A stretch of 33,297 nucleotides of DNA. It comes from Candidatus Bathyarchaeia archaeon (GTDB lineage Archaea; Thermoproteota; CALKCG01; B24; JAWCPE01). The notes under the pieces were generated by a model that saw nothing but the letters and a program-made list of their open reading frames with translations, had not been told where the DNA came from and searched no databases. The stretch is from contig JAWCPE010000004.1 of NCBI GenBank assembly GCA_038870415.1, positions 1-33,297 on the forward strand. Direction: 5' to 3'. This document shows positions 1 to 20,400 of the stretch, piece after piece (positions within the stretch are counted from its first letter, which is position 1; each line of letters starts with the position of its first letter). Both the position numbers and the translations under genes were made by a program.

Positions 1-577
1 AGGTCGTTGAAGTCCTTGATGATCCGTCCGAGCGACGACTGCACCTCCTCGGAGGTAAGCCGTAGCTCCGTGATGAGCCTGTCAATCTTGTTAATGTAAA
101 GCACCGGCCGGACCCTTTCTTCTAGGGCTTGGCGCGTCACGGTCTCCGTCTGAGTCATGACGCCCTCCACTGCATCCACGACGACCACGGCGCCGTCTAT
201 CGCCCTGAGCGAACGCGTCACCTTGCCCGTGAAGTCGATGTGCCCCGGCGTATCGATGAGGTTGATGACGTAAGGCGTCCCGGCGCGCTCGTAGTAGAGG
301 CTGATGTTCGCCGCCTTGATCGTCATCTGCCTCTTCTGCTCCTCTTCCATGAAGTCTAGGGCGAGGGCTTCCCCCGCCACGGAGGGCGAGAGGAGCCCGG
401 TCGCAGCGAGGAGGCTATCAGTCATGGTCGTCTTGCCATGATCCACATGAGCGATAATCCCAGTGTATTCCGGGCCCTGCGAAGCGAGGTGAAGCTGGTT
501 TCGCTTTAGGCCTTTCGGACCTGGTTCTTATCCTTGACGATGCGTAGGATCTCCGCGGTGGACTTGTACTTCGGCAA
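1..577 (-). CDS. fusA: Translation elongation factor 2 (aEF-2), N-terminal part; spliced from exon 1 (577-514) and exon 2 (466 to beyond window start)
   Basis: Manual translation: TTG start at 577, [21 protein letters not shown], then after removing 467-513 [24 protein letters not shown]...[17 protein letters not shown]...[65 protein letters not shown]1, G2, G3 and G4 motifs of EF-2 are present. Confidence 0.97.
467..513 (-). other. 47-nt bulge-helix-bulge (tRNA-type) intron in the EF-2 pre-mRNA
   Basis: Transcript reads CCAGG-UCCG-AA^A-GGCCU...GGGCC-CGGA-AU^A-CACUGG. Central 4-bp helix UCCG/CGGA, two 3-nt bulges (AAA, AUA), intron stem GGCCU/GGGCC, exon stem CCAGG/C(A)CUGG. Cutting after the second nt of each bulge gives GUC CGA AAC ACU GGG (V-R-N-T-G). 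The unspliced frame hits TAA at 508-506. Confidence 0.9.
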
Positions 578-18365: not shown

Positions 18366-19697
18366 CTACGCCGGCTTGGGCAATCCATCCGTGAGGAACT
18401 GGCGACCTTCAGCGATCAACTCTTCGATCGTCACTTCCCGTTGGGTGGCGTGCCTCATATCCCTCAAGATGAGCTTGCCCCGCTCCATCTCCTCTCTCGC
18501 GAGGATTACGACGAAGGGGAACCCCCTCTGGCTGGCGTAGGCCAGCCCTCTCCTGAGGCCTCTCCGTGAAAGGTCTATCTCAACGGGCAGCCCCACGTTC
18601 CGAAGCCTGTACGCTATCTGAGCTGCTCGACCTACAGAGGCGTTCTCCAACGGGACTAGGTAGATGAGGCTCGTAGACTTAGATGTGGCGGCGAGGCCCT
18701 CCTTCTCCATCGCGAGAAGCAACCTGTCCACTCCGGGGGCACACCCTACAGCGGGTGTAGGCTCGCCTCCGAAGAGCTCAACGAGCCTGTCGTAGCGCCC
18801 GCCGCCTATCAGGGCGATCTCGAGTCCTGCAGCGAAGACCTCAAAGATGAGGCCAGTATAGTATTCGAGGCCCCTGGCGAAGCCGAGGTCTACGAGCAAA
18901 GCGGCGTTAGGGAAGATCGCCTTAGCCTCATCTAGCGTTCTTCGGAGGGAGCTAAGCGCCTCCACGGCTACGGGGCTGCCGCCGCAGGCATCCGTCGCTT
19001 CCCGGATAACATTCGCGTAGTCCAGCCCTTTAAGCCCGAAGAGCCTAGAGAGTAGCTCTGTCGTCTTCTGCGGCACGTTCAGGCCTTCTAGGCGATTGAG
19101 AGCCTCCGTATACCTCTTCTTGTCAGCCATCGAGAGGACGGCGTTCTGGTCCTCTTCTGAGACGCCCGCCTCGCCCATTATTCCCCTCAGGACGGCTACA
19201 TTGCTTACCTTGACGGTGAAGGTCTTGAACCCCAGCCTAGTCATCAGGTCTGAGGCTAGGGTGAGTATCTCCAAGTCTCCTTCCAGCCCGGGGACGCCGA
19301 AGAGTTCGAAGCCCCCTTGATAGAAGCGGCGGAACCTCCCAAACTGGGGCTCATCATACCGGTAGAAGTCCCAGATGTACCCTAGCCTCAACGGCTTAGG
19401 TGCCGTCCTAAGCTTCGTCGCCACAAGCCTCGCTATTGGCGCTGTTCCCTCCGGCCTTAATGCTACGTCCCGTCCGCCTAGGTCCTTGAAGGCGTACATC
19501 GCCCGTCGGGTCTCATCCCCCACCTTGGCGGCTAATAGCTCATAGTGCTCCAGGGGTGGCGTCTCAACCTCCTGATACCCGTAGAGCTGGAAGAGCTGCC
19601 GGATCGTCCCCTCTACATGCCTGCGCTTCGCCAAGTCTTCTGGCAGGTAGTCCTTCATCCCACGGAGCGGCTGGAATCGCGTGGCCTCTCGTCCCAT
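18366..19697 (-). CDS. hisS: Histidine--tRNA ligase
   Basis: RGMKDYLP, LRPEGTAPIAR, YRYDEPQFGRFRRFYQ, ARGLEYYTG, GGGRYD and a C-terminal anticodon-binding domain. Confidence 0.97.
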   Translation of the reverse strand: MGREATRFQPLRGMKDYLPEDLAKRRHVEGTIRQLFQLYGYQEVETPPLEHYELLAAKVGDETRRAMYAFKDLGGRDVALRPEGTAPIARLVATKLRTAPKPLRLGYIWDFYRYDEPQFGRFRRFYQGGFELFGVPGLEGDLEILTLASDLMTRLGFKTFTVKVSNVAVLRGIMGEAGVSEEDQNAVLSMADKKRYTEALNRLEGLNVPQKTTELLSRLFGLKGLDYANVIREATDACGGSPVAVEALSSLRRTLDEAKAIFPNAALLVDLGFARGLEYYTGLIFEVFAAGLEIALIGGGRYDRLVELFGGEPTPAVGCAPGVDRLLLAMEKEGLAATSKSTSLIYLVPLENASVGRAAQIAYRLRNVGLPVEIDLSRRGLRRGLAYASQRGFPFVVILAREEMERGKLILRDMRHATQREVTIEELIAEGRQFLTDGLPKPA

Positions 19698-19848: not shown

Positions 19849-20400
19849 TTAGAACCCGAGCGGGGATACCGCGTAGTAGACCACTTCCCCCCTTCTGTCG
19901 ATGACAGCGAGGACAAGTTCCTTCTTCGAGCTCTGCGTCGTCCTCAGGTTATCGACGAGTGTCTCGATCCTCAGAGGCTTGCCTTCCGAGACGCCGACCA
20001 CTATTAGCTTCGCCGGTTCCTTCCCGTAAGCGCCTCTCTCGTAAACCCTGAAGTCGAGGCCGAGCCCGTAGCCTTCCTTCACGACGTACCCTCGGCTTCT
20101 CAGGTCTCGGAAGACCAGGTATCGAGTCCAGACCTCTGGGTCTCTGCGCAGGAACGCCTCAGCGAGCTCTTTGAACGCTACTTCGCGGCTGTCCCCGTCT
20201 CTGACGATGAGCTTCTTCTCCGCTACCAGGTAGAGGCTCTCCTCAGGGGAGAGGACTAGCCGTTCTCCCTCAGCTGTACCGTAGCCTCGTTGAACCAGGG
20301 AGTCGAGGTATTCCCCTTTCTCCACTACGACACGGCCGTCGATCCAACGAGCCTCCCCTGTAATGAAGGTCAACCGGGCGCCGCCGGGTGACTCAGGCAT
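19849..20400 (-). CDS. endA: tRNA-splicing endonuclease subunit (probably structural/beta subunit)
   Basis: LSPEESLYL, YLVFRDLRSRGYVVKEG, DFRVYERG and LAVIDRRGEVVYY. The catalytic His position reads KEPA instead of the usual xHS/xHA. Confidence 0.88.
   Translation of the reverse strand: MPESPGGARLTFITGEARWIDGRVVVEKGEYLDSLVQRGYGTAEGERLVLSPEESLYLVAEKKLIVRDGDSREVAFKELAEAFLRRDPEVWTRYLVFRDLRSRGYVVKEGYGLGLDFRVYERGAYGKEPAKLIVVGVSEGKPLRIETLVDNLRTTQSSKKELVLAVIDRRGEVVYYAVSPLGF

Follow-up and report, generated by a model that had tools for sequence, protein, structure and literature searches.

A predicted bulge–helix–bulge intron in the elongation factor 2 pre-mRNA of a Bathyarchaeia archaeon and its relatives

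The stretch of DNA analyzed here, referred to as the window, comprises the opening 33,297 bases of contig C4 in an archaeal assembly of 2.06 Mb (genome G000, Candidatus Bathyarchaeia archaeon; 231 contigs, 88% complete). Close to its beginning, on the minus strand, the single-copy gene for elongation factor 2 (EF-2) is interrupted by 47 nucleotides (nt) at positions 513–467, and these are very probably an archaeal bulge–helix–bulge (BHB) intron in the EF-2 pre-mRNA. This reading rests on the geometry of the predicted RNA, the restoration of frame and sequence upon excision, conservation and covariation among relatives, the splicing enzymes encoded by the genome, and the lack of any other EF-2 gene. 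Every prediction of it that could be tested computationally, on relatives, on DNA contigs, on the single copy, on EndA and RtcB, and on the cut rule, was borne out. An EF-2 BHB intron is undescribed within the literature searched, while the mechanism itself is already known.

Exon 1 (514–577, minus strand) begins with TTG at 577–575, which corresponds by homology to MP[KR][YF]K, the opening of the uninterrupted EF-2 genes in relatives, and consists of 21 codons and the first base of an Asn codon, its last base being A514. The exon 1 frame (ORF 506–577) adds two codons past the exon and then ends at TAA 508–506, inside the intron (467–513, minus strand), the length of which is not divisible by three. 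Exon 2 (1–466, minus strand) starts with A466, opens with the region of the G1 motif, and leaves the window through the start of the contig. Its frame is closed upstream by TAA 530–528, and the listing of open reading frames (ORFs) agrees with the earlier reading of this DNA from its letters alone (the sequence-only reading) that no ATG, GTG, or TTG lies between this stop and the G1 motif, the first being GTG 446–444 within the motif itself (ORF 3–446). The remainder of the gene resides on contig C39 (11919–13520, minus strand). The profile TIGR00490 (aEF-2) matches the window with its positions 22–174 and C39 with its positions 185–720, and its sole other match in the genome is a 39%-identical GTPase on contig C8; EF-2 is therefore one gene, broken once by the contig end and once by the 47-nt insert. 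Relatives G049 (98% complete) and G077 (100% complete) each have one EF-2 match, interrupted, and no intact second EF-2, so the expectation that no intact copy exists elsewhere was borne out both by the profile search in G000 and in these more complete carriers.

The bases around both exon–intron borders are predicted to form a BHB. The central helix of four base pairs (bp) consists of UCCG (516–519, minus strand), which are coding bases of exon 1, and CGGA (469–472, minus strand), which are intron bases, with U519–G516 pairing with C472–A469. The 5' bulge is AAA (513–515, minus strand), and the 3' bulge is AUA (466–468, minus strand). Within the intron, GGCCU (508–512, minus strand) and GGGCC (473–477, minus strand) form the inner helix, in which G512–U508 pair with G477–C473 and U508 at the same time opens the in-frame stop codon. 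The outer exon–exon helix is formed by CCAGG (520–524, minus strand) and CACUGG (460–465, minus strand), where G520 pairs with C465, A464 is bulged, and 521–524 pair with 463–460. Read 5' to 3', each strand presents a helix, the 4-bp helix, a 3-nt bulge, and a helix, which is the orientation of pre-tRNA. The unconstrained minimum free energy (MFE) fold of 450–535 (minus strand) is exactly this structure, at −28.6 kcal/mol, and reproduces all the helices and bulges described in the sequence-only reading, every coordinate of which was correct to the base. Two 3-nt bulges on opposite strands with a 4-bp spacer helix are present in the MFE fold and in the output of the strict-geometry script described below, and RNAalifold predicts the central helix de novo.

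The predicted cuts fall between A514 and A513 in the 5' bulge and between U467 and A466 in the 3' bulge. Cleavage after the second base of each bulge had been assumed from the outset, and it coincides with the rule given for cbf5 introns in section 8 of PMC2738675, where the cut lies between the second and third bulge residues on each side. The strict-geometry script, which requires exact BHB geometry and then checks the reading frame after excision, returned one top solution for the window, the 47-nt intron 513–467, the removal of which restores the frame. Excision joins ...NQVR to the EF-2 G-domain with the Asn codon rebuilt across the joint, which is the same restored frame and conserved R–N junction as had been claimed. 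Equally strict BHBs occur in G000 at a chance rate of ~1.4e-4 per position pair (68,819 matches; both strands, 119 lengths); a BHB at the single frame-restoring pair is therefore not expected by chance. This applies equally to every interrupted relative examined.

Relatives carry the interruption at the same codon. Among the EF-2 loci compared, of which related genomes supplied 30 and named genome records 80, the codon at this site, written R/N with the slash marking the intron, is interrupted in 19, including the window. The carriers comprise 13 further loci of the window's order (L009–L021), L029 (G004) of the same order, L025 (G023) of another family, and L041, L069, and L070 from metagenome-assembled genomes (MAGs) titled Bathyarchaeota or Bathyarchaeia. 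The remaining readable loci are continuous across the R/N codon, and several of them are interrupted at other EF-2 sites. Strict BHB excision restores ...[IV]R/N[IT]... in 18 of the 19 interrupted loci; the nineteenth, L016, fails the strict script and has the same layout by eye, with one A·C mismatch in the inner helix. The introns at this site measure 26–47 nt, and their interiors vary freely while the helices are kept. The inner helix, of 5 bp in the window, spans 4–13 bp in relatives, with 89.9% of its alignment cells paired.

The helices also covary, as had been anticipated when a comparison with relatives was proposed. In an alignment of 18 distinct sequences with 14 pairs, tested against 500 shuffles, 93.6% of the cells are paired (78.5 ± 1.4% in shuffles; 0/500 as high), 47 cells show double-sided changes (0/500 shuffles have as many), and the covariation score is 0.556 against 0.263 in shuffles (0/500 as high). 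Double-sided change affects 10 of the 14 pairs, a number matched by 10/500 shuffles. Sliding the 3' partners by 1–3 columns lowers the pairing to 17–54% (maximum 54.2%), and the central and inner helices and the 5' bulge reappear in an unguided RNAalifold prediction on the 18 sequences, with compensatory changes in 7 of 11 predicted pairs. Pairing of the central helix holds in 18/18 sequences, its second pair being C–G in 10 and U–A in 8; this pair joins the synonymous third base of an Ile/Val codon to an intron base. The first outer pair (G520–C465 in the window) is likewise paired in 18/18, as A–U in 14 and G–C in 4, and joins the first base of the Ile/Val codon to the third base of the Asn codon. 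As both covarying pairs include coding bases, the RNA structure across both exon–intron borders is judged from the alignment to be under selection, and the covariation of coding bases is regarded as direct evidence of it.

A stop codon within the intron is also conserved. All introns at the R/N site (22/22) hold a stop in the exon 1 frame, and in 20 of these 22 the stop is the same codon, two after the junction codon, with TAA, TAG, and TGA all in use. The stop of the window (506–508) occupies columns 23–25 of alignment A1. At the first base of the stop codon, T is nearly invariant, in contrast to the variable base with which it pairs. From the constancy of the stop position despite the exchange of TAA, TAG, and TGA, and from the invariance of the T beside a variable partner, we infer selection for immediate termination on unspliced mRNA.

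The expression of EF-2 would then proceed as follows. Transcription would begin upstream of TTG 577, and bases of exon 1, the intron, and exon 2 would fold into a helix–bulge–helix–bulge–helix structure. A two-subunit EndA would cut each 3-nt bulge past its second base (A514 and U467), and RtcB would ligate the exons, rebuilding the Asn codon and placing the start codon in frame with the G1 motif. Ribosomes on unspliced mRNA would halt at the conserved stop two codons beyond the junction codon and release a 23-residue peptide. The enzymes for such a pathway are encoded in G000. An EndA subunit gene lies in the window itself (19849–20400, minus strand; 183 aa; PF02778 at 1.1e-12 and PF01974 at 2.3e-23), directly upstream of the histidyl-tRNA synthetase gene (18366–19697, minus strand). 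A second, divergent EndA paralog with both PF02778 and PF01974 is found at the end of contig C206; the two paralogs are only locally similar to each other and, by their sequences, look like the subunits of a two-subunit endonuclease. Enzymes of this type are reported, in the relevant parts of PMC5829648 and PMC10485636, to tolerate relaxed motifs and to occur together with cbf5 introns. One RtcB gene is present, on contig C53 (9.9e-173). ARAGORN called introns in 33 of 41 tRNA genes; 23 of these are 14–54 nt long, and the other 10 are implausibly long and are probably over-calls or non-canonical arrangements.

Several observations weigh against the presence of a spliced intron. No RNA run matched in a search of sequencing runs for this stretch, so cleavage and ligation are inferred. 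G000 taken alone is 88% complete, in 231 contigs, with EF-2 spread over two of them, and might conceivably hold a second copy. The z-score of the fold taken alone is modest (−2.35), and 6 of 200 shuffled sequences fold equally well. The outer exon–exon helix of the window is weak next to the 3-nt bulge, consisting of one pair, a bulged A, and four pairs, and in many relatives only 1–2 outer pairs stack directly, so that the exon side is not that of a textbook helix–bulge–helix–bulge–helix (hBHBh') motif. A weak outer helix fits the relaxed motifs that PMC5829648 and PMC10485636, in the parts that treat them, attribute to two-subunit EndA.

Other explanations of the interrupted gene would dispense with splicing altogether. 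The insert might be an assembly or sequencing error or a recent pseudogenizing insertion, with EF-2 function provided from elsewhere, and the fragmented, 88% complete assembly and the position of the gene at a contig end would suit such a view. However, DNA contigs from two hot-springs metagenome runs cover 277–940 and 315–1327 with 0 differences and bridge the insert unchanged; the two runs were assembled independently, within the same study, and one may be the source sample. A joint of 109 to 412 in a single X3 contig (26-nt side, five other letters) was taken as the EF-2 of another organism and not as a variant. The same site is moreover interrupted in more than 20 genomes of several families and of separately named MAG records, the exon sequence is fully conserved, the helices covary, and no second EF-2 exists even in carriers that are 98–100% complete. 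The broken-gene explanation is thus effectively refuted and retains almost no probability. Scarcely more probable is translational recoding without RNA cutting, either by a frameshift within the 19-nt overlap of the two frames (527–509) or by a hop like that in T4 gene 60. The open frames do overlap between the stops 530–528 and 508–506, which makes a shift formally possible, and a stable hairpin is present; a frameshift, however, would put ~17 unconserved residues in place of the conserved R–N junction, and it cannot explain the inserts with lengths that are multiples of three, as these hold in-frame stops (33 nt with TAG in G002, 30 nt with TGA in G003 and G013, and 39 nt with TAA in G077). 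A hop fares no better, as a single Arg-like codon, CGG 472–470, is available for landing near the 3' end and leads into the wrong frame, and recoding of either kind leaves unexplained why the 4-bp helix and two 3-nt bulges are kept in all lineages at four sites.

A further alternative, about as improbable as recoding, accepts cleavage by EndA and denies productive ligation, so that the BHB would be a decay or regulatory cleavage site rather than an intron. The relevant part of PMC10485636 describes endonuclease cleavage of mRNA leading to decay in yeast. Without ligation, however, full-length EF-2 could not be made from the sole gene copy, and the exact cuts restore the frame and the conserved Asn codon in every lineage, which selection for decay alone would not bring about. 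Two further classes of element were rejected: a group I or group II intron, which has a ribozyme core of hundreds of nucleotides, given the insert length of 47 nt (26–47 nt in relatives) and an Rfam search of the entire window that gave 0 matches at gathering thresholds, and an intein, given that 47 nt is not a multiple of three and that 22/22 R/N introns contain an in-frame stop.

The distribution of the R/N intron was followed with a covariance model (R1) built from the R/N alignment, which matches the window at 451–530 (minus strand) with E = 1.3e-10. By this search, 15 of the 17 genomes belonging to the window's order carry the intron, and in the genome collection this order makes up the entire class; the two class genomes lacking it (G001 and G016) have no EF-2 N-terminal match whatever, and their EF-2 region is probably unassembled. 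In a phylum sample of 151 genomes, R1 matches 19, and the match is real in 18, including G049 and G077; the match in G081, 33 nt on an uninterrupted gene, is not an intron. A survey of 401 genomes of the phylum with a natural uninterrupted EF-2 N-terminus as the query, covering the first 170 residues of EF-2, found a match in 386 genomes, and its follow-up added G245 and G269 to the R/N carriers. The survey results are the best 150 of 416 matches, so that counts of interrupted EF-2 genes are lower bounds, and the clustering of intron sites toward the 5' end is partly a product of a search confined to the first 170 residues.

An EF-2 tree (117 rows; 283 columns downstream of all intron sites) was read descriptively only, as kin share labels. 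The carriers of the R/N site and of two others, AH/V and GK/TT, fall into one clade with a support of 98 in the Shimodaira–Hasegawa-like approximate likelihood ratio test (SH-aLRT), and this clade also contains intron-less Nitrososphaeria and Caldarchaeales-like sequences. The R/N state undergoes three changes on the tree, of which the starred branches force only one, and a single R/N clade is not rejected by the approximately unbiased (AU) test (p = 0.338); the AH/V site calls for at least two events. The R/N intron is probably old within the clade of the window's class and the relatives of Nitrososphaeria and Caldarchaeales, and it is one of at least four independent BHB insertions in the first ~66 EF-2 codons in this phylum.

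Together with R/N, four EF-2 intron sites were found in the surveyed first 170 residues, and strict geometry together with the cut rule passes in 13 of the 15 further loci tested at these sites. At AH/VDHGK, between His and Val of the G1 motif, introns of 30–36 nt with a strict BHB occur in families f18 and f32 (L023 in G032; L150–L152 and L160 in G130, G338, and G230), and a relaxed BHB occurs in family f34 (L149/L159 and L140 in G184 and G149); L149 and L140 fail the strict geometry, their central helix having one G·A and their inner helix being bulged, as judged by eye. G081, a congener, has an uninterrupted EF-2 gene. What looks like a second break in G149 consists of masked N's and is not an intron. 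At GK/TT, inside the Lys codon, a 29-nt intron with a strict BHB lies at about locus position 570–600 of L051, from a MAG titled Nitrososphaeria archaeon. At EIEQ/LRQMT, near codon 66, introns of 29–32 nt are found in L137, L138, L139, and L141 (G122, G094, G253, and G247; family f28). Each of these four genomes has a strict BHB, and together they make up a single clade of the EF-2 tree. Two loci from DPANN-labelled MAGs (L091 and L092) contain, at about locus position 420–620, a long in-frame EF-2 insert that ends in ...HN before the T of the G1 motif; from its sequence, it looks like an intein at a hotspot shared with the GK/TT intron. In L090, from a Methanocellaceae MAG, the EF-2 frame changes at about locus position 510–570, before LIRNIG, and no BHB was seen there; this change may be a sequencing error.

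A second gene of the same genomes is interrupted as well. The Cbf5 coding sequence of G000 (contig C24) is split into two frames by a 20-nt insert with a strict BHB (C24:13883–13902, minus strand), the removal of which restores the catalytic motif AGHSGTL/DPGVTGVLPV. An insert at this GTL/DP position is present in 17/17 class genomes (loci L177–L192 and G000), with lengths of 16–76 nt. Of these inserts, 11/17 pass the strict script; six micro-introns of 16–18 nt in genus g6 show, by eye, the central helix and the bulges with an inner helix of at most 1 bp. The class lies outside the orders with a described cbf5 intron, which is confined, according to the portion of PMC2738675 that treats its distribution, to Desulfurococcales and Sulfolobales and is scored there as absent from Thermoproteales, Cenarchaeum, Nitrosopumilus, and Korarchaeum.

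The sequence-only reading had further proposed that mRNA introns may be more widespread in this lineage. The interruption of cbf5 lends this proposal partial support, while a genome-wide scan of G000 showed no further cases. The scan combined a strict BHB with the fusion of two interrupted open frames and a codon-usage score, with 2-nt or 4-nt bulges as decoys, and had low power: at the strictest coding cut, it gave no usable excess, with 168 matches against 146, 149, and 143 for the decoys, and no excess was obtained at any inner-helix length. A relaxed version returned 51 matches against 23, 38, and 40 for the decoys, and its top 40 resemble ordinary gene boundaries. The scan recovered EF-2, while its ORF filter rejected cbf5; lacking power and having filtered out a known case, it supports no conclusion either way.

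Upstream of the EF-2 start, ~690 nt (578–1266 of the window) separate the divergently oriented EF-2 and DUF2284 genes, which is long for an archaeal intergenic region. All ORFs in it, on both strands, are of at most 63 aa, and it contains no Rfam match and no tRNA.

The spliced mRNAs of archaea found in the literature searched are those of cbf5 and HVO_1309 only. Watanabe 2002 and Yoshinari 2006 are cited for the cbf5 pre-mRNA intron. The full-text literature searched, with subscription-only papers and a 2006 book chapter outside its scope, describes no BHB intron in EF-2, in agreement with the claim of the sequence-only reading that no such example had been described; the accessible portions of the Caldiarchaeum genome paper and of an EF-2 evolution paper mention none either. 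In the accessible part of a 2025 endonuclease paper, the only references given for pre-mRNA splicing are the three on cbf5, and in the passage of a 2023 review (PMC10485636) on this subject, splicing by the endonuclease is ascribed to "at least two archaeal genes" (cbf5 and HVO_1309), with more expected.

As far as the cited sections go, the EF-2 intron shares with the cbf5 intron of Desulfurococcales and Sulfolobales (Yokobori 2009, PMC2738675) a BHB composed of exon and intron bases, the same cut position, an association with hetero-oligomeric EndA, a variable interior with conserved helices, and presence or absence by lineage. It differs in that its host gene encodes an essential translation GTPase, that its position, 64 nt into the ORF, immediately precedes the G1 motif, and that its lineage is not among the orders from which mRNA introns had been described. 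With 4 bp and 3+3 bulges, the core of the EF-2 BHB is canonical; for the published cbf5 motifs, the parts that describe them use the terms unconventional or relaxed. In addition, EF-2 has a position-conserved in-frame stop and four intron sites across lineages. HVO_1309 of Haloferax volcanii, as presented in the relevant parts of PMC7714728 and PMC10485636, resembles the proposed case in that the archaeal splicing endonuclease cuts its mRNA at a BHB, and its spliced RNA is reported there as the major product (Schwarz 2020, PMC7714728; PMC10485636); in contrast to the present case, the endonuclease of its euryarchaeal host is homodimeric, and the gene itself is another and not universal.

The EF-2 intron shares the recognition motif, EndA and RtcB, and the cut rule with archaeal tRNA and rRNA BHB introns, and G000 has many short tRNA intron calls. 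Unlike those RNAs, its substrate is a translated mRNA, so that splicing must compete with ribosomes, and codons constrain the exon parts of its helices, whose covariation makes use of synonymous sites. In eukaryotes, the splicing of HAC1 and XBP1 by IRE1 and RtcB, as outlined in the pertinent part of PMC13149111, resembles the proposed event in involving a short, spliceosome-independent mRNA intron, a protein nuclease acting on stem–loops, ligation by protein, and an excision that alters what is translated; in contrast, IRE1 is an unrelated nuclease, the eukaryotic event is a regulated stress switch, and the EF-2 case is known from sequence only. It is conceivable, though rather unlikely, that the introns do more than persist passively and that the BHB and the position-conserved stop, 64 nt into the mRNA, tie EF-2 output to EndA/RtcB capacity, which would make the system a prokaryotic counterpart of IRE1–XBP1/HAC1 coupling translocation to tRNA maturation, and, separately, that the four independent insertions clustered at the ultra-conserved DNA of the G1 motif (P-loop) mark it as a homing hotspot for mobile BHB introns, one that the EF-2 inteins of DPANN appear to share.

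EF-2 is used as a single-copy marker for completeness estimates and phylogenomics, according to the accessible part of PMC6143161. If the intron is confirmed, automated calling in these lineages will leave the gene truncated or split, as happened with cbf5, which makes the intron a problem of annotation. The covarying exon–intron helices and the possibility of a single ancient gain, left standing by the AU test, would also offer a natural system for the study of intron gain and loss. Transcription and translation in archaea are generally taken to be coupled, so that the timing of splicing relative to ribosome loading would become a question, on which the conserved early stop codon provides a concrete handle. 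If splicing is confirmed, EF-2 would become the third gene among archaeal spliced mRNAs, and a universal, essential, and highly expressed one, interrupted at four codons across lineages and at one of these sites throughout a whole class, and the splicing of mRNA by protein enzymes would be a routine need for translation in these archaea.

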